A stretch of DNA of 64,000 bases from Candidatus Limnocylindria bacterium (GTDB taxonomy: Bacteria; Chloroflexota; Limnocylindria; QHBO01), in contig DASSNX010000169.1 in NCBI GenBank assembly GCA_035701185.1, positions 1,138-65,137 of the forward strand, given 5' to 3'. Shown one piece after another: positions 13,378 through 29,993 of the stretch (position 1 is its first letter; every line of letters begins with the position of its first letter). The notes beneath the pieces are model-generated. The model searched no databases, was not told the origin of the DNA, and saw only the letters and a program-made list of their open reading frames with translations. The translations under genes were made by a program, and so were the position numbers.

Positions 13378-13905
13378 GTGCCACGCACCCGGCTGTGCTC
13401 GCGACCACGCACCCTGTGGTCGCGTCTTCTGACCGTCCTGCTCCTCGGAGCAGGGTTCGCGGTCCTGGCCCTTGCGTTCGCCGTGCGGCTCGCGGGATTG
13501 CATTTCCAGACCGTCCTGACGAATTCGATGCGGCCGACCTTCTCGGCCGGCGACGTCGTCGTGACGCGACCCGTGAGCATCGGCTCCGTCCAGGTGGGCG
13601 ATGTCATCGCGTTCCAGCCGCCCAACGGCTCGGAACCGGTCATTCACCGGGTCACGTCGGAGAAGGACGGCGTGATCAGGACGCGGGGTGACGCAAACCC
13701 GGTCAACGACCCATGGAAGGTCAGGCTGGAGGGCTCGACGGCGTATCGCCTGATCGCGGTCCTGCCTGGCCTCGGCTGGTTGGCGACCCTGCAGCGTCCC
13801 CTGCTCCTGCTGGCCGCGCTCCTCGCGATGCTCGCCATCGCGCTCGAGCTGCGAAACGTGGTGCAAGCCCGAACCAAGCGGGCCGTGCCCGAGCCACGAC
13901 CCTGA
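13378..13905 (+). CDS. Signal peptidase I, SipW/Sec11 type (S26B)
   Basis: N-terminal TM, catalytic Ser (TNSMRPTFSAGD), His (VIHRV) and RGDAN motifs typical of archaeal/eukaryal-type SPase (SipW-like); C-terminal TM anchor; GTG start with GGAG. Confidence 0.8.
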   Translation: MPRTRLCSRPRTLWSRLLTVLLLGAGFAVLALAFAVRLAGLHFQTVLTNSMRPTFSAGDVVVTRPVSIGSVQVGDVIAFQPPNGSEPVIHRVTSEKDGVIRTRGDANPVNDPWKVRLEGSTAYRLIAVLPGLGWLATLQRPLLLLAALLAMLAIALELRNVVQARTKRAVPEPRP

Positions 13906-13960: not shown

Positions 13961-15148
13961 GTGACGCTACGCAAGACCGCCGCTGCGCTGGCAGTGGCTG
14001 GCCTGATCGTCGGACTCATCGGGTCCGGGATCGGCGCCAGCTTCGTGTCGACGCTGACGGCCACCGAAAACATCCAGGTCGGCGGATTCGCCTGCCGGAT
14101 CATCGAGCCGAGTGACGGCACGGTTGCCGGTGACGGGAAGTCGGTAACCTATGACGCGCCGACCATCACCAGCTCGGCGGCCGGCAATGCCCCGTTCTCG
14201 TTCACCGTCGAGAACAACGGCGACATCGACCAGCTGCTGACGGTCTCGAAGACCGGCCAGAGCGGAAACCTGTCGGGGAAGTTCTCTGACATGCCGGCCT
14301 CGCCGTCACCCGTCACGCTGCCGGCCGGCGGCTCCGTGGAGATCACCACCGGCATCCAGTGGACCGAGCTCGACAACGACGATCTGGGCCGGTTCGGCTC
14401 CATGGTCTGGACGATCAACTGCGGCGAGGCCAGTGTCGGCTTCGACAACGCCCCGAACGTGCTGCCAGGAAACCTGCCGAGCTACGGCCCCGAGGCCTAC
14501 TCGTTCGACGAGTGGGGCGGCCAGGTCGCGCTGGCGGGGACTGCCCGGGATCTTTCGGCGGCCACCGTCACCCTGAGCAGCTGGGCCTGCGAGAGCGGCA
14601 CTTGGAACGGGAACGACTGCGCGACCACCCCGGGCGCGACCTTCAACGTGCCGATCACGTTCAACGTCTACAACGTCGGCCCCAGCAACGCAGTCGGCTC
14701 GCTCATCACGAGCAAGACCCAGACGTTCGCGGTTCCGTTCCGGCCCAGCGCCGACGCGGTCAACTGCACCGGACCCGACGCCGGGAAGTGGTTCAACGGC
14801 ACGACCTGCTTCAACGGCAAGGCCGTGAACGTCACGTTCAGCTTCGCCGGCGAGACGTTGCCGGACAACGTGATCTTCGGGATCACCTTCAACACGAGCA
14901 ACTACGGCTATGCGCCGCTCGGGGCTGGCACACACCCGACCGACTCGCTCAACATCGCGACCTACCCCGGCAATGGCGTGTCCACGCCGGCCGAGGTCGG
15001 GAGCTGGGTGCCGGACGACGTGTCCGCGTACGTGGCGAACGGTGCGGCGAACACGCCGTTCGCGGGGCCGGTCACGAACCTCCCGACCGGCCCGGGCGAC
15101 AACTTCGTCGGCTACATGCCGGCGGTCCAGATCTTCACGGCCCCGTAG
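13961..15148 (+). CDS. Secreted protein with TasA/camelysin-like SipW-cognate N-terminal signal
   Basis: Signal/TM helix then GASFVSTLTATENIQVGGF, resembling the SipW-cognate consensus (A.F.D.E...N.F.AG) of TasA/CalY; flanked by two sipW-type genes; Gly/Thr/Asn-rich beta-type composition; GTG start with AGGGAGG SD. Confidence 0.65.
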   Translation: MTLRKTAAALAVAGLIVGLIGSGIGASFVSTLTATENIQVGGFACRIIEPSDGTVAGDGKSVTYDAPTITSSAAGNAPFSFTVENNGDIDQLLTVSKTGQSGNLSGKFSDMPASPSPVTLPAGGSVEITTGIQWTELDNDDLGRFGSMVWTINCGEASVGFDNAPNVLPGNLPSYGPEAYSFDEWGGQVALAGTARDLSAATVTLSSWACESGTWNGNDCATTPGATFNVPITFNVYNVGPSNAVGSLITSKTQTFAVPFRPSADAVNCTGPDAGKWFNGTTCFNGKAVNVTFSFAGETLPDNVIFGITFNTSNYGYAPLGAGTHPTDSLNIATYPGNGVSTPAEVGSWVPDDVSAYVANGAANTPFAGPVTNLPTGPGDNFVGYMPAVQIFTAP

Positions 15149-15171: not shown

Positions 15172-16392
15172 ATGGCCGGCAGGCAGGCGCTGATCTCCCG
15201 CCACGGTGGCGGGCGCCTGCCTGCTGCGACGCAGCTGATTCCCGGACCCGGCCATGCGCTGCATGGTCGGGTCCCCCACCTCTCGCCGAGGGCGCTGCTC
15301 GGTGCGGCGCTCGAAGCCCTGCTGGTGGCGGCCATCGCGCTGGCGGCCTTCATCGCGCTCGGCCTGGTCGGCAATCCCTGGTACCGCGTCATCGGCATCG
15401 ACGGTGGGTCCATGCAGCCGACCCTGTCTCAGGGCGACCTGATCGTGGTCCGTCCCACACCCTCGATCATCGAGCCCGGCATGATCCTGGTCATGACGGT
15501 GGGCGACGAGACCGTCACGCACCGCGTCGTCGCCGTTGGCCCCAATGGAACCTTCACGACCCGCGGCGACGCGAACGCGGCAGATGACCACTGGGATGCG
15601 CGGGACGTCCGCGTCCGGGGGCTCTACGTCGCGACCATCCCCTGGCTGGGACGGGTCCTGCCGGTCCCCGACACGTCCGAAGCCCTGTTCACCGACGAGG
15701 TGACCGCGACGATGCAGCTCACGGTCGGTCCGTTCACGACGCCGAATCCGCCGCCCACGCCAGCCGAGTGTGGCGACATGAAGTTCGCCGAGGTCCTGGT
15801 CGGCACGTCCGGCGACGATGTATTCCACGCCGCCAACGGTGGTGCCCTCATCTTCGGCCTCGGCGGCAACGACACGATTTACGGCGGGAACGCCAAGGAC
15901 TGCCTCGTCGGGGGCGACGGCAACGACCTGCTGGTCGGCGGCAACGGCAAGGACGTCCTCCTCGGCGAGGACGGCAACGATGTCCTGGTCGGCGGTGCCG
16001 ACAACGACGTGGCCGAGGGCGGCAACGGCAAGGACCGCCTGGACGGCGGCGACGGGACCGATGCGTGCATCGGCACCAGGAAGGACACGTACGTCGACTG
16101 CGAGTCGGTCAGCAACGGCTCCAGCAGCCCGACTACCGATGGACCCCGCCGGTTGAGTACGCCTGAACCGACACCGGTCAGCCAGCCGCCGGATCCCGCG
16201 GGTGCGACGCCGTCATCGGCCGAGACACCGTCACCGGATCCAACGCCCAGCCCATCGGCTGAGCCGACGGCCGCACCCGAGACGCCAACGCCGACGCCGG
16301 ACCCCACGCCGACCGTGCCCGGAGGGCAGGCGCAAAGAGGGTGGGAGATCGGTCACGAGTGGCGGGCCCGACCGGATTCGAACCGGCGCTAG
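15172..16392 (+). CDS. Signal peptidase I (SipW/S26B type) fused to RTX calcium-binding repeats and a Pro/Thr-rich tail
   Basis: GGSMQPTLSQGDLIVV (Ser), VTHRVV (His) and TTRGDAN motifs, then about 8 GGxGxDxxx nonapeptide repeats (GGNDTIYGGNAKDCLVGGDGNDLLVGGNGKDVLLGEDGNDVLVGGADNDVAEGGNGKDRLDGGDGTD) and a PT-rich linker. Confidence 0.7.
   Translation: MAGRQALISRHGGGRLPAATQLIPGPGHALHGRVPHLSPRALLGAALEALLVAAIALAAFIALGLVGNPWYRVIGIDGGSMQPTLSQGDLIVVRPTPSIIEPGMILVMTVGDETVTHRVVAVGPNGTFTTRGDANAADDHWDARDVRVRGLYVATIPWLGRVLPVPDTSEALFTDEVTATMQLTVGPFTTPNPPPTPAECGDMKFAEVLVGTSGDDVFHAANGGALIFGLGGNDTIYGGNAKDCLVGGDGNDLLVGGNGKDVLLGEDGNDVLVGGADNDVAEGGNGKDRLDGGDGTDACIGTRKDTYVDCESVSNGSSSPTTDGPRRLSTPEPTPVSQPPDPAGATPSSAETPSPDPTPSPSAEPTAAPETPTPTPDPTPTVPGGQAQRGWEIGHEWRARPDSNRR
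16360..16388. repeat. attL: 29-bp direct repeat identical to the 3' end of tRNA-Asp
   Basis: tggcgggcccgaccggattcgaaccggcg at 16360-16388 is identical to 20950-20978. Confidence 0.75.
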
Positions 16393-16585
16393 CAGCACCC
16401 ACGATCCGTATTCCGATCATCCGCAGGTCAGAGTGGCTGCTAGCTGCCGGTTGTCGGCCTAATAATCAGGAAGCGCTGCCACGCACGGTCGGTTCGTCCA
16501 GGAAGGCTGGCGAGCGATAATCCGCTCATCTGGTGACGCGGCTTCTAGTCACGACAGGCTAGATGTCACAATGAGAACATACGTT

Positions 16586-17308
16586 CTATGCTAGATCGCG
16601 GATGGCCGTTGTACCTTCGCGCCGCCGAGATATCTGATTTTCGGGCCAATCGGCTGCTGCGATACGAAGTTCGGGATGTCCGCGATCGTACCGAGAAGCG
16701 GCTCTATCTCTATGCCCACCGAGAGACAGCGAGGCATGTGCAGTTGGGTCTCCGAAGCCTGGGCTGCGATCCGCTGACGATGACAGATGAGCAGCGTCGG
16801 GACTGGACCCACCGGTACAGCCTCGACGGTCCCCTCGATGAGGAATCGGAGTCTTTCTTGGAGTTGATGAAGGAGGTCCTGACCTTGAATGTCCCGTCCG
16901 AAATCGACGCGGCGCTCGCGCTGGACTTCCATTAGGATCCCGAGTCGCATGAAGACCGGATGCAGTGGAAGAACACCGAGGTCTGACCCACTCAATGGGT
17001 GTAGGCAGCTTCGAAGGGTTCTGCCAGTAACACTCCTGGGCCAGCGAGTAGCCCAGTTCCTCAACGGCCCGGATCACAAACTTCCACTGCACCAGCGTCC
17101 GGGCAGGCTCTCCGCGGCGGTAGGCGGGGCCAATATCGATGACGAACGACCCGGTGTCCGCCAGCTTCGGCTTCAGCTCACGTGCGAAGCTCAGCAGCCA
17201 ATCGAGGTACTCATCTTCGACCGTGTTGCCGTATGCCTTCGGCCGGAGCAGAGCGAATGGGGGTGACGTGATGGCCAGGTCCACAGACTGATTGGCCAGT
17301 GTCGGCAA
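16586..17308 (-). pseudogene. DNA N6-adenine/N4-cytosine methyltransferase remnant (beta-class, motif IV SPPF), apparently frameshifted or truncated
   Basis: N-terminal ~108 aa (VDLAITSPPF...IIW-like IEWV) look like a DNA MTase; the rest of the ORF is low-complexity and no motif I (FxGxG) is present in any frame. Confidence 0.45.
16588..16935 (+). CDS. Hypothetical protein (island cargo)
   Basis: 115-aa ORF with protein-like composition in the low-GC region; antisense to the degenerate part of the methyltransferase ORF. Confidence 0.35.
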   Translation: MLDRGWPLYLRAAEISDFRANRLLRYEVRDVRDRTEKRLYLYAHRETARHVQLGLRSLGCDPLTMTDEQRRDWTHRYSLDGPLDEESESFLELMKEVLTLNVPSEIDAALALDFH

Positions 17309-17559
17309 CCATTCCAGGCTACACCTGAAACTGCGGTGCCGAGCTGAGTCTGGTAGGCCGACCGAATCGTCACGGATGCACTCTAGCGGTCCAGCGGTTT
17401 CCTGTGCCCGACCTCATCGCCAGCCGGTGCGGCCATCTTCTCATCCCCGCAGAGAACGACATGCAGTTCTCGGGGCCTAATGCTTGATTTCCGTCGTGGA
17501 GTTAGCCGATACTGCATCCAATCGGCTGCCGACTCGGATGCCGAGCAGGGAGGGATGCT

Positions 17560-19698
17560 GTGAATGGGCCCTGGGTGCGCCTAGCCGCGGCCACGTTCGC
17601 CGTTGCCATCGTCGGAAATGCCAGCGCGGCGCCAATGTCGTCGGATGCCGAAGAGGCTGCGAGGGCGCTCGCGCTCGACCGAGCGGCGCAGACCCTCGAC
17701 GTTGCCGCAGATGAGGTTACGAGCACATCAGAGGGTGTCATTCAGCCGTGGGGGGTTGATCGATTCTTCGTCGGGACTTACGAGACCGCTAGCGGGAATA
17801 CAACCGCCGTTTGGGTCGACTTGGCGACTTTGGCGGTTTACGACCGTAACGAATTCTGGGCGGCCACCGAAGAAGCGCGCAAAAATTTGGGCAAATACAC
17901 CCCGGATGTTCGGGCGACGCTCGATAACCTTGCCGACGGCGACAAAGCCACAGTCGCCATCACCTACTTGTCGGATTGGCGGCAGGCTGCGCTCGCGTCT
18001 TTTCGGCTTGCCGCGCCTAACGTAAAGCTTTCTGAAGACGGCAGACCAGATACCGGGGACGACAAGTTAAACCAGGAGATCGCGCAGGAGTTGCGAGACC
18101 TCCGCAAAGCCGCACTTGTGCTGGACCGCGAGCCAATCCTCGGACTGCTGAAAGAGCAGGCTTTGACGGTTGAATATGCCGCCGAATTGGTTCCGATGAT
18201 CTGGATCACAGGCAGCAAATCCCAAATCGAAGCGGTGACTGCGTCGCCTCTGGTGGTGAATACGCTTGGGTCGTACAAGACCGAATTGGCTTCGTGGAGT
18301 GAGGCTTATGACAACATCCAAGCAGGTGACGCCTATTCATCGAACTTCAGGGGCCAGGGTACGACTGTCGCTGTAGTCGAATACAACAACGTCAAATGGG
18401 ACATTCCAACCTTGAGCAGCATCCCGTCGAGCGACTACGACAATTTCGTACAAGGTAATGTACCTCCCCATGTAGATGGCCATCCAACCTGGGTGATGGC
18501 AGCGATTGCAAGCCGCACGTCAGGCCGCAGAGGCGTGGCGCCGAATGCACACTTTCTTAGTTCGTCCACAGTCGACGGGCATACGGATCCCAACTGTGAG
18601 ACGTGTGACTTCAACATAATCGCCGCGGTAGAGAAGACCTTCACAAACCCACAGAAACCAGACCCTGATGTCATCAACCTAAGTATCGTTGCTGACTCGG
18701 GACAGAACGGACATACCGGCGATGGTGCCGAATCGATGAAGGTTTATCTCGATAACCTGGTCGCAACCGAAAACATCCATGTTGCCGCGGCCGGCGGTGA
18801 CGACTTCACGGGCTTCAGGCAGTGCAGCAATGCAAATTCGCCCAAGCGCGTTCAGGAACCCGGCGGTGCTTGGAATGTCGTGGCGGCCGGCCTCACGAAA
18901 ATCAACGGATCTGGATGGGCGGACGATCAGATCTTCTTCGAAGCGCCGAGCGACGGCGATCCGGCTTTCTGTTGGGGCAACAACCCAGGCAATCCTGGGG
19001 ACCCGGTTACCCGTGTAAAGCCTGAGCTCGCAGCGCCGGGACAAGGCGTGACGTTCCCAGACTCCTACCTCTTCGGATATGAATCTGGCACGAGTATCAC
19101 TTCACCTCAAATCGCAGGCACTATGTCCGTCCTAATCGGCGAAGACCCGACAAACCTTCGATCGTACCCGGAGGTAGTGCGCGCAGTAATCGTCGCCTCG
19201 TCCGACGTTCATCAGACCGAGCCCTCCCACAATGAGGACGATTACGAGGGGTGGGGAACTCTGAGTGTTAAGTGGGCCACGGAGCTCGTCAAAAGGAATG
19301 CTGGCCGCGGAGACTTTGGACGGCGCAATTTTGCAGCAACGGGACAGGCTCCTCACTATGGTGCGCCGGGAAGCCTGTACCAGAACCTCAGGGCGGATTA
19401 CAACCGTGCTCGGTTCGTGATCTCGTGGAATAGTCACGGGATTTACGACCAGGGAGGCTGTGATGACACATCGACTTGTTCTGACGAGCGAATGACAGAT
19501 TTCGATATCCACGTAACTAATGCGGCGACCGGCGCCTTTGTGAAGGACTGCCTGAAGCCCGCGAGTAATTACGAGGTCTGTAGTTGGGCCTCAACCCCGG
19601 GGACCACGTATCACATCGTGATGGACCCGGTTGAGTGGAATCGATTGCAGCCCGCTGAGACTGTCGGGTGGGCATTCATGAGTCACAACGACCAATGA
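17560..19698 (+). CDS. Secreted S8 family (subtilisin-like) serine peptidase with a long N-terminal pro-region
   Basis: Signal peptide; His motif VDGHPTWVMAAIAS; Ser motif GTSITSPQIAGT; Asp-motif region reads VAVVEYNN (Glu where the catalytic Asp usually sits); GTG start with AGGGAGG SD. Confidence 0.8.
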   Translation: MNGPWVRLAAATFAVAIVGNASAAPMSSDAEEAARALALDRAAQTLDVAADEVTSTSEGVIQPWGVDRFFVGTYETASGNTTAVWVDLATLAVYDRNEFWAATEEARKNLGKYTPDVRATLDNLADGDKATVAITYLSDWRQAALASFRLAAPNVKLSEDGRPDTGDDKLNQEIAQELRDLRKAALVLDREPILGLLKEQALTVEYAAELVPMIWITGSKSQIEAVTASPLVVNTLGSYKTELASWSEAYDNIQAGDAYSSNFRGQGTTVAVVEYNNVKWDIPTLSSIPSSDYDNFVQGNVPPHVDGHPTWVMAAIASRTSGRRGVAPNAHFLSSSTVDGHTDPNCETCDFNIIAAVEKTFTNPQKPDPDVINLSIVADSGQNGHTGDGAESMKVYLDNLVATENIHVAAAGGDDFTGFRQCSNANSPKRVQEPGGAWNVVAAGLTKINGSGWADDQIFFEAPSDGDPAFCWGNNPGNPGDPVTRVKPELAAPGQGVTFPDSYLFGYESGTSITSPQIAGTMSVLIGEDPTNLRSYPEVVRAVIVASSDVHQTEPSHNEDDYEGWGTLSVKWATELVKRNAGRGDFGRRNFAATGQAPHYGAPGSLYQNLRADYNRARFVISWNSHGIYDQGGCDDTSTCSDERMTDFDIHVTNAATGAFVKDCLKPASNYEVCSWASTPGTTYHIVMDPVEWNRLQPAETVGWAFMSHNDQ

Positions 19699-20210
19699 TC
19701 CGTTTGGTCGGAATCTTCCTGGTCCTGGGTCTGCTATGCGTTGCTCCCGCAGGTACTTACGCAACCGTGGGTGGCCAGTTGTCGGTAAAAATCAGCTTCC
19801 GGGGACCGTGCGAGGCCCAGGGATACCTTCAGGTCGACAACAAGTCTGGGGACTTTGTCGTCCTCGACAAGGCGTTCGAGTGGTCAGCAACACAGCCTAT
19901 CCGCCAAGTTATTGGCGCAACTCCGATTGCCGACCCAGGTGACAGGCTACTGCTCCGACTGTTTGCCGCTGATCACTCCACAGTTCTTTTCAAGTCGGAT
20001 TCGTTCAGTCACAGCGGCGATGAGAGTGGGTACTTTTCCAACTTCACGGCATTGCTGGATTGTTCGACCACTCCGTACCAGGCAGTTGTCAGCGATACGG
20101 CGATGTCCGACCCTGGTCGTGATTGGCTAACGCCGGTGGGAATTGCCCTGTCGGTTGCGGCCGTGGGGATGGCCCTGCTACTTCTGCCGCTGAAGAAGCG
20201 AGCCGATTAG
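19695..20210 (+). CDS. Hypothetical secreted/membrane-anchored protein coupled (ATGA) to the S8 peptidase gene
   Basis: N-terminal signal peptide MIRLVGIFLVLGLLCVAPAGTYA and a C-terminal TM helix followed by KKRAD. Confidence 0.55.
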   Translation: MIRLVGIFLVLGLLCVAPAGTYATVGGQLSVKISFRGPCEAQGYLQVDNKSGDFVVLDKAFEWSATQPIRQVIGATPIADPGDRLLLRLFAADHSTVLFKSDSFSHSGDESGYFSNFTALLDCSTTPYQAVVSDTAMSDPGRDWLTPVGIALSVAAVGMALLLLPLKKRAD

Positions 20211-20370
20211 GTCCTTCCAACCCAACCCTTGAGAGCGGCTTTACCAGCGCTTCGGCAGACGGCTCCGTACGCTGCGGAAGAAATCGGTCGCAGGCGGGGT
20301 CGACCAACGCCAGCGATGACCGTTGTGAAGGCAGCGTGTTTCTAGGCGCGCCAGCAGGGGACTCGTGTCG

Positions 20371-20772
20371 TCAGGAAGGTGATTGAGACTTCAGAATCTG
20401 AAATACCGTCATCGGGTACCAGCGGCCACCCTTCGCGGTCGGAATGCCTTCCGTGTTGAACATGTCCGCGATGGCGGCGTATGTGAGCCCCTTCATGCGC
20501 ATGAAGTTGATGCGCTTTCGAATTTCCAGTGGGTAGCTGCGCGGTGCCCCAAAGCGGTGCCCGGCCGCCATCTTGGCTCTCATCGCATCTCTGGTCCGTT
20601 GCGCTATCAGGTTGCGTTCAAATTCGGCGAACACGGACAGGACACCAGCCATCATCTGGCCCTGGGGCGTGCTCATGTCGAGGCCTAGATCAAGGATCGC
20701 CAACGACCAGCGCTCTCGTTGGGCATCACGCACGATCCGGGCGAAGTCGAATTGCGAACGGGATAGCCTCAT
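20371..20772 (-). pseudogene. Serine recombinase (resolvase/invertase) fragment lacking the N-terminal catalytic Ser region
   Basis: ORF begins at the LDRLSRS-like motif and continues through the resolvase dimerisation region and C-terminal HTH (GLTYAAIADMFN); there is a stop codon and no catalytic-domain sequence upstream. Confidence 0.6.
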
Positions 20773-20949
20773 GGTCGCTCGCGAGTGAGAAAGCGAAAGC
20801 TGATCTGCTCCACGCGATCATCGGACGGGTGCTGGTACAAGGGTCGGAATTCGTAGGCGTGGAACTCACGCCGCATGCCGAGGCGCACGGATTAGCGCTC
20901 TGCCTACCTGAGCACGTCCGTTCGGAAAGGAGCCGCTCTGGTGCTGCTA

Positions 20950-20978
20950 TGGCGGGCCCGACCGGATTCGAACCGGCG
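20950..20978. repeat. attR: 29-bp direct repeat (3' end of the intact tRNA-Asp)
   Basis: Identical to 16360-16388. Confidence 0.75.
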
Positions 20979-21026
20979 ATCTCCAGCGTGACAGGCTGGC
21001 ATGTTGGGCCGCTACACCACGGGCCC
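20950..21026 (-). tRNA. tRNA-Asp (anticodon GTC)
   Basis: Cloverleaf GGGCCCG-TG-D arm-CCAGC CTGTCAC GCTGG-T arm (GGTTCGAATCC)-CGGGCCC-G-CCA; anticodon loop CUGUCAC. Confidence 0.9.
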
Positions 21027-27653: not shown

Positions 27654-28679
27654 ATGCAGCCTGCGCTCGTCCTGCGCGATCGCGCCGCCCGGGAGGCCGA
27701 TGAGGATCGGCTCAGTCCCGCCGCCATGCGGTCCGCGGCGTCGCGCGGCCGCGTCCGGCGGGAGGAGCCGGACGAGCTGCGGACCGCCTTCGAGCGGGAT
27801 CGCGACCGGATCATCCACGCCAAGGCCTTCCGCCGGCTGAAGCACAAGACCCAGGTCTTCGTGAATCCCGATGGCGACCATTACGTCACGCGCCTGACCC
27901 ACACCCTGCACGTCGCCCAGATCGCCCGGGCGCTGGCCGCCGGCCTCAGCCTCAACGAGCCGCTGGCCGAGGCGATCGCCCTCGGCCACGACGTCGGGCA
28001 CACGCCGTTCGGCCACACCGGCGAAGAGGCGCTGTCACCGTACTTCCCGCCTGAGGGCTGGCACCACGCCGCCCAGAGCGTTCGCATCTTCGAGGTGCTC
28101 GAGGACCTGAACCTGACGTGGGAGGTGCGGGACGGCATCCGCGCGCACTCCTGGAAGATCAGCCCGCCGCCGGCGACCCAGGAGGCGCTCTGCATCCGCT
28201 ATGCCGACCGCATCGCCTACCTGACCCACGACGCGCTGGACGCGATCCGGGCCGGCGTCCTGTCCACCGGCGCGTTTCCGGCGGCGGTGAGGCAGCGCTT
28301 CGGCGAGCCGGGCCGGGCGTGGATCGGTGAGATGATCGACGCCGTGATCTCCCGCTCCGTGCAGGTGGGCGAGGTTCAGATGGATGCCGAGACCCTGGGC
28401 GTCATGAACGAGCTGCGCGACTTCATGTTCGAGCGCGTCTACCTGGCGACCGACCAGATGGCGCACCAGCAGCGTGCAATCGCCGTGCTCCAAGCCCTGA
28501 TGGAGCATCACCTCGCCCACCCCGACGAGATCCCGCCCAGCTATCGCCAGGATGCCGCGCCACTCGTCATGCAGGCCGCCGACTACGTGGCAGGCATGAC
28601 CGACCGCTACGCGCTGGCCACCTACGCGCGCGTCTTCGGAGCCGATGCCGCCGCCGCCACGGGGCTGCCGGGCGCCTGA
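27654..28679 (+). CDS. dGTP triphosphohydrolase-like HD-domain protein
   Basis: FERDRDRIIHAKAFRRLKHKTQVF and HD motif (GHDVGHTPFGH) typical of Dgt-like proteins. Confidence 0.85.
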   Translation: MQPALVLRDRAAREADEDRLSPAAMRSAASRGRVRREEPDELRTAFERDRDRIIHAKAFRRLKHKTQVFVNPDGDHYVTRLTHTLHVAQIARALAAGLSLNEPLAEAIALGHDVGHTPFGHTGEEALSPYFPPEGWHHAAQSVRIFEVLEDLNLTWEVRDGIRAHSWKISPPPATQEALCIRYADRIAYLTHDALDAIRAGVLSTGAFPAAVRQRFGEPGRAWIGEMIDAVISRSVQVGEVQMDAETLGVMNELRDFMFERVYLATDQMAHQQRAIAVLQALMEHHLAHPDEIPPSYRQDAAPLVMQAADYVAGMTDRYALATYARVFGADAAAATGLPGA

Positions 28680-29623
28680 CCGGGTGGCGCGAAGATCCGC
28701 AGGGCAGCCGGCTGGACGGCGAACACCACTGGAGTGATGCCGATGGGCTCGCCGTCGGCGTGGGCCGGCAGCGCGCGACGGCGGCCGACGACCGTTACCC
28801 GCCTGGCGGAGAGGCGCTTGACGCGCGGCTCGCGCCGCGGCCGGTTGCGCGCCACCGCCAGGTAGTGACGCAGGACGTCCAGGGTCGTCATCCCGGAGAA
28901 GACGACGAGGTCGAGCTCGCCGTCGGCGGGATCGGCCTCCGGCGCCAGGGCGAAGCCGAACCCGTAGTACGGCCCGTTGCAGGCGGTGACCGCCGGCGCG
29001 CCGGTCCGCAGCCGCCGCCCGTCGACCGTCAACAGCATCCCGGTTCGGCGCCGGCGCAATGCTCGCCACGCCGCCCGCACCGCGCGCCACGCGCCATAGC
29101 GGTCGCCGACGGCCACGGCGCCGAAGCCGGCCGCATCCAGGCCCACGCCGGCGGCCTCGAAGAAGGCGGCCGCGTTCGCGGGCGGCCGCTCGTCGTCATC
29201 CGCGCCGGAGGCGTGCCACGCCACGCCCGCGTCGACCAACCGCGGGGCGCCGGTGGCGATGATCCGCAGGGCGTCCGGCTCCTCGCGGGGCAGGCCCCAG
29301 CCGGTGGCGATGTTGTTCCACGACCCGCGCGGCACGACGCCGAGCGTCGCGTCGCTGCCCACCAGCGCCGCGGCCACGGGCCGGACGGTGCCGTCCCCAC
29401 CGGCCACTGCCACGTCCCACTCCTTGGCGATGGCCTCGGCGGCCAGGGCAGCGGCGTCGTCGTCCTCGGCCAGGACGTGGAGCTGGACGCGCAGGCCGTG
29501 GCCCGTCAGCTGCTGCTGCATCTCCTCCGGCTCGAGCGGCGGATGGTCGGTTGCCGGCGAGGCGGGCTTGCCGCCGGAGACCGGGTTCACGAGCAGCAGC
29601 AGGGGCCGCCGGCCGTCACTCAT
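28622..29623 (-). CDS. Diacylglycerol kinase catalytic-domain family lipid kinase (YegS/BmrU-like)
   Basis: LLLLVNPVSGG...VAVAGGDGTV motif; ATG at 29623 overlaps the upstream gene's stop (ATGAGTGA). Confidence 0.75.
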   Translation of the reverse strand: MSDGRRPLLLLVNPVSGGKPASPATDHPPLEPEEMQQQLTGHGLRVQLHVLAEDDDAAALAAEAIAKEWDVAVAGGDGTVRPVAAALVGSDATLGVVPRGSWNNIATGWGLPREEPDALRIIATGAPRLVDAGVAWHASGADDDERPPANAAAFFEAAGVGLDAAGFGAVAVGDRYGAWRAVRAAWRALRRRRTGMLLTVDGRRLRTGAPAVTACNGPYYGFGFALAPEADPADGELDLVVFSGMTTLDVLRHYLAVARNRPRREPRVKRLSARRVTVVGRRRALPAHADGEPIGITPVVFAVQPAALRIFAPPGQAPGSPVAAAASAPKTRA

Positions 29624-29993
29624 CGGTCGCCGACGGCAGCGGGGTCCGCGTGACGCCGTCCCAGGCAAAGGTCTGGAAGGTGCCGTCGTTGCAGTCCATG
29701 GCGACGGTGCGCGGCCGGTCCGCGGCCGCGCTCGAGCGCGCGCTGCCCGGCGGTCCGTACACGGTGCGGGTGGTCAGGCCGATGAAGGTCGACCCGATGT
29801 TCACCGCCGGTCCGCCGACCTCGAAGGCCGGCGATGGTGCCGGGGTGCCATCGGCCAGGTAGAGGCGATCGGCCCATTGCAGGTTGGCCGGACAGCCGGC
29901 CTGGTCGCGGAAGGCGACATTCATGCCGATCAGGCCGATGACCAGGAAGCCGCCGAAGATCGCGCCCAGGCAGCCAATGGCGCGCCAGTTCAC
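29616..29993 (-). CDS. Small membrane-anchored hypothetical protein, co-transcribed with the lipid kinase
   Basis: N-terminal TM (AIGCLGAIFGGFLVIGLIGM); stop overlaps the dagK-like start. Confidence 0.45.
   Translation of the reverse strand: MNWRAIGCLGAIFGGFLVIGLIGMNVAFRDQAGCPANLQWADRLYLADGTPAPSPAFEVGGPAVNIGSTFIGLTTRTVYGPPGSARSSAAADRPRTVAMDCNDGTFQTFAWDGVTRTPLPSATDE

Follow-up and report, generated by a model that had tools for sequence, protein, structure and literature searches.

Signal peptidases are regarded either as stand-alone housekeeping enzymes or as enzymes dedicated to the products of their own operon. The best-studied parallel to the locus described here, the tapA-sipW-tasA operon of Bacillus subtilis, encodes a dedicated endoplasmic reticulum-type (Ser-His) signal peptidase, SipW, together with one major (TasA) and one accessory (TapA) substrate. 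The substrates share a stretch that starts at the cleavage site (A/xFxD...); in TasA the donor strand is made up of the residues that immediately follow the SipW cut, and a strand resembling it stands at the N-terminus of TapA (PMC9674648). The overlap of the tapA and sipW genes and the similarly low abundance of their products hint at an association of TapA with SipW (PMC10151520). A 2026 preprint reports that TasA-superfamily loci can contain unusual peptidases with 10 transmembrane (TM) segments as well as tip or minor components, and describes no fusion. We analyzed a 64,000-nucleotide stretch of DNA (the window) of high GC content (69.7%), whose proteins are deposited at NCBI as those of a metagenome-assembled genome (MAG) of Candidatus Limnocylindria (Chloroflexota). 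Within it lies an operon that, like tapA-sipW-tasA, encodes a dedicated Ser-His signal peptidase with its apparent substrates, one major and one accessory, which share a stretch beginning at the predicted cleavage site. The operon differs from that of B. subtilis in that the apparent accessory substrate is covalently fused behind a peptidase that has no second TM helix (TM2), in that the accessory module is an RTX beta-roll and not the Ig fold of TapA, and in that the major partner has no detectable homology to TasA or camelysin. The fusion is encoded by an uninterrupted open reading frame (ORF) at 15172-16392 (+) of 406 aa with a coding-type GC content at third codon positions (GC3 0.86), and is identical to the NCBI protein HET7583175.1 ("S24 family peptidase"), which is encoded on a 65-kb contig. 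We propose that it is a natural enzyme-substrate fusion, in which a TM2-less SipW/Sec11-type peptidase is joined to a mature RTX substrate and the retained site between them is cut, an interpretation that we consider reasonably probable.

The N-terminal part of the fusion is assigned, from its sequence, to the S26B (Sec11/SipW-type) peptidases with an intact catalytic set. It scores above the cut-off with the Pfam model Peptidase_S24 (27.1 bits, cut-off 23.3), under it with Peptidase_S26 (17.1 bits, cut-off 22.9), and just below it with TIGR02228, the NCBIfam model for archaeal/SipW-type signal peptidase I (50.8 bits, cut-off 51.85); fusions of this kind are named "signal peptidase I" or "S24 family peptidase" in the databases. 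A profile of the family matches human SEC11C at E 3e-12 and SEC11A at E 2e-11. Pairwise alignment with SEC11A places S80 (nt 15409-15411, GGSMQPT) on the box GSMEPA, and H117 (VTHRV), D133 (GDAN) and D139 on VHRV and GDNNAVDD, the base being His and not Lys. All four residues are invariant in both alignments of relatives examined (A4 and A5). In an AlphaFold2 (AF2) model built from a 47-sequence alignment, the catalytic domain has a predicted local distance difference test score (pLDDT) of 80-92, and Foldseek matched it to LexA/UmuD (top), SEC11A (7p2p_A), SipA (4n31) and SpsB.

Human SEC11A/C (7p2p/7p2q) are the best relatives in both sequence and fold, sharing the GSMxP, HR and GDxN...D boxes, a single N-terminal TM helix and a catalytic domain on the lumenal or extracytoplasmic side; unlike the fusion, Sec11 has neither a passenger nor an intrinsic cleavage motif and works in a multi-subunit complex. 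LexA, UmuD and lambda cI (S24, clan SF) have the same fold and provide a precedent for self-cleavage by a peptidase, LexA acting in cis and UmuD in trans. Their enzymes are cytoplasmic, with a Ser-Lys dyad and an Ala-Gly site on the N-terminal side of the catalytic domain, whereas the fusion has a Ser-His dyad, a predicted extracytoplasmic location and a candidate site C-terminal to the domain. SipA/LepA of Streptococcus pyogenes (4n31) represents a signal-peptidase fold dedicated to the assembly of a surface polymer, in this case pilus polymerisation. SipA is not known to have the catalytic residues and acts as a chaperone, in contrast to the fusion, in which the catalytic residues are all conserved.

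The topology of the fusion appears simple. Kyte-Doolittle hydropathy peaks at 2.68 in the TM helix at residues 39-65 and stays at or below 1.44 in every other segment, and five basic and no acidic residues precede the helix. No second TM helix was found after the IPxxG box by hydropathy (maximum 1.44 past residue 70), and the close relatives likewise have none. With one N-in TM helix and no second, everything after residue 66 is predicted to be extracytoplasmic, placing the catalytic domain and the RTX part outside the cell, in agreement with the orientation of the C-terminus that a first-pass annotation of this DNA had asked to have checked. The C-terminal second TM helix that distinguishes the SipW subtype is thus absent from the fusion, while the stand-alone signal peptidase of the same operon, sipW1, has one at residues 134-163. 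In B. subtilis SipW, a separable C-terminal region follows the second TM helix; that annotation had drawn an analogy between this extension and the RTX part, for which we found no support, the helix in question being absent in the fusion.

The RTX part of the prediction held well. The Pfam model HemolysinCabind (PF00353) matched the fusion at E 3.3e-15 over three stretches, with a score of 56.1 bits (gathering cut-off 23); together with the conserved catalytic residues and the uninterrupted ORF, this establishes an S26B-type peptidase and RTX repeats in one polypeptide, as had been proposed. The eight canonical nonapeptides listed earlier are all present, but the count is incomplete, there being ten registers in all at residues 210-299 (nt 15799-16068). 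The AF2 model forms 13 short strands with a period of 9 residues at pLDDT 92-95, so that the module is modelled as a parallel beta-roll, and Foldseek matched the roll to the beta-rolls of PML lipase and of CyaA block V (matches 2z8x, 5cxl and 9p0c). The family profile matches CyaA at E 1e-47. Cysteines 200, 244, 299 and 310 are invariant (alignment A4), and two disulfides probably brace the roll, which would fold with Ca2+. The module resembles those of type I secretion system (T1SS) substrates such as CyaA block V, the serralysins and PML lipase in its GGxGxDxUx nonapeptides and predicted parallel beta-roll. It differs from them in its four invariant cysteines and compact N- and C-caps, in a host belonging to an uncultured class of Chloroflexota, and in that export would rely on an N-terminal Sec-type anchor or signal and not on a C-terminal T1SS signal. 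The roll is followed by a segment of 32% P, 19% T and 14% S (residues 317-385), and from about residue 317 onward most of the chain has a pLDDT below 50. This segment had been described as a linker; in the fusion protein it links to nothing and is a terminal tail.

The junction between the catalytic domain and the RTX module has the character of a signal-peptide cleavage site. All fused relatives read ATIPWLG, then 11 residues ending in S-x-A, then x-F-x-D...M-x-I-T-V-G-x-[FW], followed by a variable Pro-rich linker and the passenger. S169 and A171 are invariant and F173 is conserved in at least 90%, also when the alignment takes in non-RTX passengers, and the small residues at -3 and -1 persist even in proteins that are as little as about 35% identical. 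The spacing from catalytic domain to site is exactly 11 residues in every close relative (45 of 45). The junction of the fusion, S169-E-A171/L-F173-T-D175...TVGPF, conforms to the pattern of SipW substrates, except that the peptidase domain stands where a signal peptide would have its n- and h-regions. The major partner in the operon, a 395-aa protein, has a predicted signal-peptide cut at GIGA26/SF and the mature N-terminal strand motif SFVSTLTATENIQVGGF; the corresponding motif of the fusion is LFTDEVTATMQLTVGPF. A hidden Markov model (HMM) of the 20-residue junction stretch matched the 395-aa family at residues 25-43, which comprise its predicted signal-peptide cut and mature N-terminus, at E down to 1.7e-7 (1296 sequences), the best six-frame background ORF in the same set having E 5.9. 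Conversely, an HMM of the partner family matched fused proteins at the junction at E down to 5e-5. The link between junction and partner motif rests on these reciprocal HMMs, which were built in this analysis. The two stretches are also alike in being disordered in the AF2 models, at residues 167-188 of the fusion (pLDDT below 50) and 18-39 of the partner. We infer that cleavage would occur at A171/L172, in cis or in trans; cutting is favored by the strict conservation at -3 and -1, which only an active-site rule explains.

Peptidase and RTX repeats in one chain were found in about 25 protein clusters (JGI, ENA, Logan and NCBI) at 45-90% identity, some with an added PKD domain, and five members of the fusion's own 90% cluster (JGI, ENA and NCBI) share the architecture, which argues against a frameshift between the two parts. 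In one-genome-per-species data, matches to both halves occurred only in Chloroflexota MAGs (Limnocylindria, Limnocylindrales and "uncultured Chloroflexia"), while other phyla gave matches to the RTX part alone. Domain HMMs were then mapped on the first 46 loci and the window. The fused state is present in about 10 species-level Limnocylindria loci, the window included; the fused ORF always lies directly 3' of one or two genes with the partner N-domain, usually with a stand-alone sipW1 ahead. At one such locus (L003) no stand-alone SipW was found within 8 kb, so that the fused enzyme there probably serves the upstream substrate. A full-text literature search (SipW/TasA/donor strand, SipW/Chloroflexi, TIGR04088, signal peptidase-RTX fusion) found no description of such an architecture. 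The claim that it is new thus stands with respect to the literature, but the fusion is no one-off, given these clusters and loci. We view it as a SipW-dedicated secretion operon in which the enzyme appears joined to its substrate, an architecture new to the literature searched.

The alternative, unfused state was found in about 28 loci (L014-L044), where the peptidase and the RTX protein are encoded by separate adjacent genes. The peptidase of these loci has a TM2 followed by an RRRR loop, and the RTX protein has a normal signal peptide ending ...G-[ST]-x-A / [YF]-F-[ST]-D. Since TM2 and complete signal peptides are present, the separate genes are unlikely to be frameshift errors of fused ones. 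Free-standing RTX modules of the same type (PPEC...F..VIVGT.GDD), again with signal peptides, occur in P0029, P0032, P0035, P0041, P0048, P0056 and P0064. The operon of two loci, L025 and L018, consists of sipW1, a homolog of the 395-aa gene and an unfused RTX gene, the last being the third gene as in the window. Its product reads ...FVPIVTAEA / LFADSVDSQMSVTVGPW...PPEC, to be compared with ...PVPDTSEA / LFTDEVTATMQLTVGPF...PAEC in the window, and in L025 the sequence EA/LFADSVDSQMSVTVGPW stands behind a real signal peptide. By these comparisons, the post-peptidase part of the fusion, from the cleavage site on, is homologous to proteins exported by a dedicated SipW, and the fused clade has lost the TM2 of the peptidase and the hydrophobic core of the substrate's signal peptide and kept the cleavage site. 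The RTX block had been interpreted as a regulatory or second-function appendage of the peptidase; because the same module is separate behind a SipW-type signal peptide in about 28 loci and the junction keeps a cleavage motif, it is better understood as a fused substrate. One metagenome protein, P0063, carries the peptidase, TM2, RRRR loop, full signal peptide and RTX module in one chain, and is possibly an unreduced fusion intermediate. In the MAG loci L011, L013, L017 and L035, genes of the fused type are split across frames at or near the junction; the splits may be assembly indel errors rather than biology, and call for caution in automated annotation.

The TM2-less peptidase domains form, by sequence comparison, a single clade: those at least 45% identical to that of the window all lack TM2, and those with TM2 are all at most 42% identical. 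Passengers vary within it. In the close clade they are the RTX roll, an "ATVRIVPQTI...CYxGAC" domain, HYR/Big, LysM, or little beyond a Pro/Thr tail; clade-wide they include an Ig-like domain, HYR/Big, LysM, PKD, CBM96 and ASH-Ig. We searched a set of 1.84 billion representative proteins with a profile and classified the non-giant top matches; the 411 matches at E up to 1e-30 do not give the family size, as RTX columns stayed in the profile and giant RTX proteins pollute the list. Among the non-giant top matches 65 extended peptidases could be evaluated, of which one has TM2, and their passengers include CBM96 and five ASH/PapD-like Ig domains. A motif with small residues at -3 and -1 and an aromatic residue at +2 was found within 34 residues of the IPxxG box in 58 of the 65, as compared to 24.9 +/- 4.0 (maximum 37) in shuffles and 3 of 39 in downstream windows. 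Metagenome proteins include numerous TM2-less SipW-like peptidases that combine an S/T-G-A/W-F type site with other passengers (P0317, P0388 and others). The RTX fusion represents a single branch of this larger family, which is undescribed.

The 395-aa partner consists of an Ig-like N-domain (residues 45-163) and a conserved C-domain (165-395). Scans of the protein against Pfam and NCBIfam gave no match; its homologs P0161 and P0170 are named 'predicted ribosomally synthesized peptide with SipW-like signal peptide' by JGI, which is the name of TIGR04088. The AF2 model has a mean pLDDT of 86.6, with residues 18-39 below 50, and a Foldseek search against the PDB gave only weak PapD/ASH/MSP-like Ig matches. 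An identity as a TasA/camelysin (PF12389) fiber protein was rejected, Pfam, a PDB sequence profile and Foldseek against the PDB all being negative; no TasA or AbpA signal was found in the N-domain by Foldseek or the PDB sequence profile, and the domain is generically Ig-like. No Pfam family covers the C-domain (window 14453-15148), which contains the motifs IYDS.P.PLPGN.PS.G.EA... and SSWAC..G.W...C.TTPGAT. It is found repeatedly after ordinary signal peptides, in a wide range of architectures (P0205-P0240) that include combinations with parallel beta-helix, Calx-beta, TSP3 and CarboxypepD_reg domains, and appears to be a widespread uncharacterized extracellular domain.

Under the enzyme-substrate interpretation the fusion would function as follows. 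The N-terminal TM helix would act as the export signal, with the whole C-terminal part translocated, and the catalytic domain (S80/H117/D133) would come to lie on the outer face of the membrane, both steps being predicted from the topology. The site S169-E-A171/L-F173 would then be cut in cis, by a second copy of the fusion, or by the SipW1 of the operon. This would free a protein of about 21 kDa consisting of the N-terminal strand LFTDEVTATMQLTVGPF, the Ca2+-folded beta-roll and the Pro/Thr tail. The peptidase would stay in the membrane and also process the 395-aa partner, which has the same strand motif at its mature N-terminus. By analogy to TapA and TasA, the shared strand may, speculatively, allow the RTX protein to accompany the 395-aa protein as a minor or accessory component.

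A more ambitious version of this scheme is that the fusion is a self-processing secretion device in one polypeptide, its own TM helix exporting and its own active site freeing the passenger, or else that the strand, while tethered, primes donor-strand assembly; we hold this version to be conceivable but somewhat doubtful. If it were true, a self-processing device would amount to an autotransporter analogue in monoderms. A tethered strand that primes assembly would mean that the functions of SipW and TapA are merged, and would provide Rosetta-stone evidence for a physical SipW-TapA partnership.

Several observations speak against the interpretation of the junction as a processed site between enzyme and substrate. 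A membrane-embedded hydrophobic core, a feature of typical signal peptidase substrates, is missing before the site, which is preceded by IPWLGRVLPVP alone. The spacing between catalytic domain and site, exact in the close relatives, varies in the wider family, mostly between 10 and 17 residues, and we accordingly downgraded the 11-residue spacing as proof of a cis geometry. AF2 does not dock the site in the active site (pLDDT below 50), although at such values the model says nothing either way on cis cleavage. The window's own junction reaches only E 0.3 against the partner-family HMM, significance being attained at the level of the family. Scans of the junction and the partner N-terminus as short peptides gave no relevant match in Pfam or NCBIfam (NCBIfam at E up to 10), the presence of the short TIGR04088 model in the NCBIfam copy scanned being unconfirmed. 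The protein P0063 is a single example, and the near-identical L023 (5827-7471) lies in two frames, so that one of them may carry an indel error. The donor-strand analogy is weakly based, on motif position only, and concerns a partner without a detectable relationship to TasA or camelysin. Lastly, an exchange of passengers leaves the strand motif with the peptidase, which would also fit a role while tethered.

This last observation leads to the principal competing explanation, which we regard as a less likely though serious one: that the chain is left uncleaved and acts as a nucleator or anchor, strand, RTX roll and tail being permanently attached to the cell surface by the TM helix. In one form of it, the strand would complement the groove of the first 395-aa subunit once the same enzyme had trimmed that subunit, combining SipW- and TapA-like roles; in another, closest to the first-pass annotation, the RTX roll would be a Ca2+-dependent surface or adhesion module. 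The missing hydrophobic core ahead of the site and the constant association of the strand with the peptidase while passengers vary are both in keeping with a tether. P0050, P0054 and P0068 furthermore appear to bear just the strand and a Pro/Thr tail, although P0068, at least, lies on a contig of just 995 bp, the end of which may truncate it. TapA is reported to be membrane-colocalised and as scarce as SipW (PMC10151520), and a signal-peptidase homologue matched by Foldseek, SipA (4n31), is a pilus-assembly factor in S. pyogenes. A tethered strand, however, has no need of the invariant small residues at -3 and -1 (S169 and A171), which recognition by an active site predicts; the catalytic residues are all retained, and a bona fide signal-peptide cleavage site occupies the homologous position in the relatives without the fusion. 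These considerations lead us to retain the cleaved enzyme-substrate fusion as the preferred interpretation.

A potential concern with any unusual fusion in a MAG is whether a deletion, frameshift or assembly error has joined two neighboring genes into an ORF without a function in its own right. It is indeed commoner for the SipW and RTX genes to be separate, fused-type genes are broken across frames in L011, L013, L017 and L035, and the window copy carries a read-through mutation of its stop codon. But the same in-frame form, with TM2 and the hydrophobic core precisely absent, recurs, at 45-90% identity, in about 25 clusters whose samples and assemblers are independent; there is no variation in the catalytic residues, the site or the cysteines, the ORF has a GC3 of 0.86 over its length, and the TM2-less peptidases form a clade of their own. 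We therefore rejected an artefact or decaying gene, for which we see very little probability, on the grounds of a recurrent in-frame architecture with invariant residues. Even more improbable, in our estimation, is a classical RTX protein, that is a T1SS substrate (toxin, adhesin or S-layer protein) with a peptidase-like N-terminal domain. The strong RTX profile matches are what such a protein would give, but the C-terminus is a Pro/Thr tail with no identifiable T1SS signal, the N-terminus bears a TM anchor, the 406 aa contain no pore-forming or acylation region, and free-standing versions of the module have N-terminal Sec-type signal peptides. No T1SS genes (ATP-binding cassette, membrane fusion or outer membrane protein) were found among the operon neighbors, which are a signal peptidase and a secreted protein, or among the ten largest ORFs of the window. 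The T1SS toxin was rejected on the combined evidence of anchor, C-terminus, neighbors and free-standing modules.

If the enzyme-substrate fusion is correct, it would constitute a natural case of cis or near-cis processing by a signal peptidase without a membrane-embedded signal peptide core, and would bear on substrate recognition by S26B enzymes. It would also lend genomic "Rosetta-stone" support to the suspected coupling of SipW to the accessory, nucleating component of TasA-like systems (PMC10151520). The variation of passengers behind a constant peptidase, site and strand raises the possibility of a compact, swappable export-and-release cassette. In addition, the signal peptides of the related proteins suggest that type I secretion is not the only route of export for RTX beta-rolls, a Sec/SipW route being in routine use for them in Candidatus Limnocylindria, a soil lineage that is abundant but uncultured.

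The features of the operon are listed in Table 1. The fusion is the third gene of a tight operon, after sipW1 and the gene for the 395-aa protein, with gaps of 55 and 23 nt. SipW1 (NCBI HET7583173.1, 'signal peptidase I') scores 71.5 bits with TIGR02228 (cut-off 51.85) and 34.1 bits with Pfam S26, and its TM segments lie by hydropathy at residues 12-43 and 134-163. The start of the fusion, MAGRQALI, is kept in P0001 and P0003.

Table 1. Features of the sipW1 operon and of the fusion ORF (window coordinates; residue numbers are those of the encoded protein).
Feature	Position	Strand	Remarks
sipW1	13378..13905	+	Stand-alone SipW/Sec11-type signal peptidase I, 175 aa, two TM helices; operon gene 1
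395-aa secreted protein	13961..15148	+	SipW-type signal peptide; operon gene 2
Fusion, cytoplasmic N-terminal tail (residues 1-38)	15172..15285	+	5 Arg/Lys, no Asp/Glu
Fusion, single TM helix (residues 39-65)	15286..15366	+	AF2 helix; signal-anchor, N-in C-out (predicted)
Fusion, S26B catalytic domain (residues 66-160)	15367..15651	+	Alignment to SEC11A, Foldseek; ends ATIPWLG
Fusion, 11-residue spacer RVLPVPDTSEA	15652..15684	+	Ends S169-x-A171; candidate scissile bond A171/L172 (nt 15684/15685)
Fusion, strand motif LFTDEVTATMQLTVGPF (residues 172-188)	15685..15735	+	Reciprocal HMM searches
Fusion, short Pro-rich linker (residues 189-198)	15736..15765	+	Length differs among relatives (alignment)
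Fusion, RTX module (residues 199-311)	15766..16104	+	N-cap E-C200, ten nonapeptides 210-299, C-cap ending C310-E311
Fusion, Pro/Thr/Ser-rich disordered tail (residues 312-383)	16105..16320	+	Composition, pLDDT; native end ...TPTVP
Fusion, 21-codon read-through extension and TAG stop	16321..16392	+	GGA at 16321-16323, TGA in L085
29-nt exact copy of tRNA-Asp 3' end (att repeat)	16360..16388		Left edge of 4.6-kb low-GC insertion

The 3' end of the fusion gene differs in the window copy from that of its relatives. In L085, whose protein is 89% identical, a TGA stop directly follows ...TPTVP where the window has GGA, and an intact tRNA-Asp gene lies 37 nt past the stop on the opposite strand. The other members of the 90% cluster are all 383-385 aa long, and P0001, P0002 and P0004 end at TVP. 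The L085 stop and the shorter cluster members indicate that the native protein ends in its Pro/Thr tail at ...TPTVP (nt 16320). The window ORF runs 21 codons past this native end into intergenic DNA and a tRNA-Asp fragment, and the extension is probably non-functional; the GGA reflects either a genuine mutation or a wrong base in the MAG sequence. The fragment belongs to a 29-nt exact direct repeat (16360-16388 and 20950-20978), of which the second copy lies in a tRNA-Asp gene at 20950-21026 (-). The 4.6 kb at 16389-20978 have a GC content of 56-63% compared to about 70%, and are absent from L085 and L084, where the tRNA gene follows directly or almost directly after the fusion gene. This insertion looks like a decayed integrative element. 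Encoded in it are an N6/N4 DNA methylase that is truncated (16586-17308, -), a protein of 712 aa whose sole match, a weak one, is mycosin/S8-like (17560-19698, +), and part of a large serine recombinase (20371-20772, -). Elsewhere in the window, ARAGORN reported an 88-nt tRNA-Gly (CCC) on the minus strand at 29327-29414, within an ORF (28622-29668, -) with coding-type GC3. A tRNA-Gly is expected to be about 74-76 nt long, and the call may be false, or the tRNA may contain an insertion.

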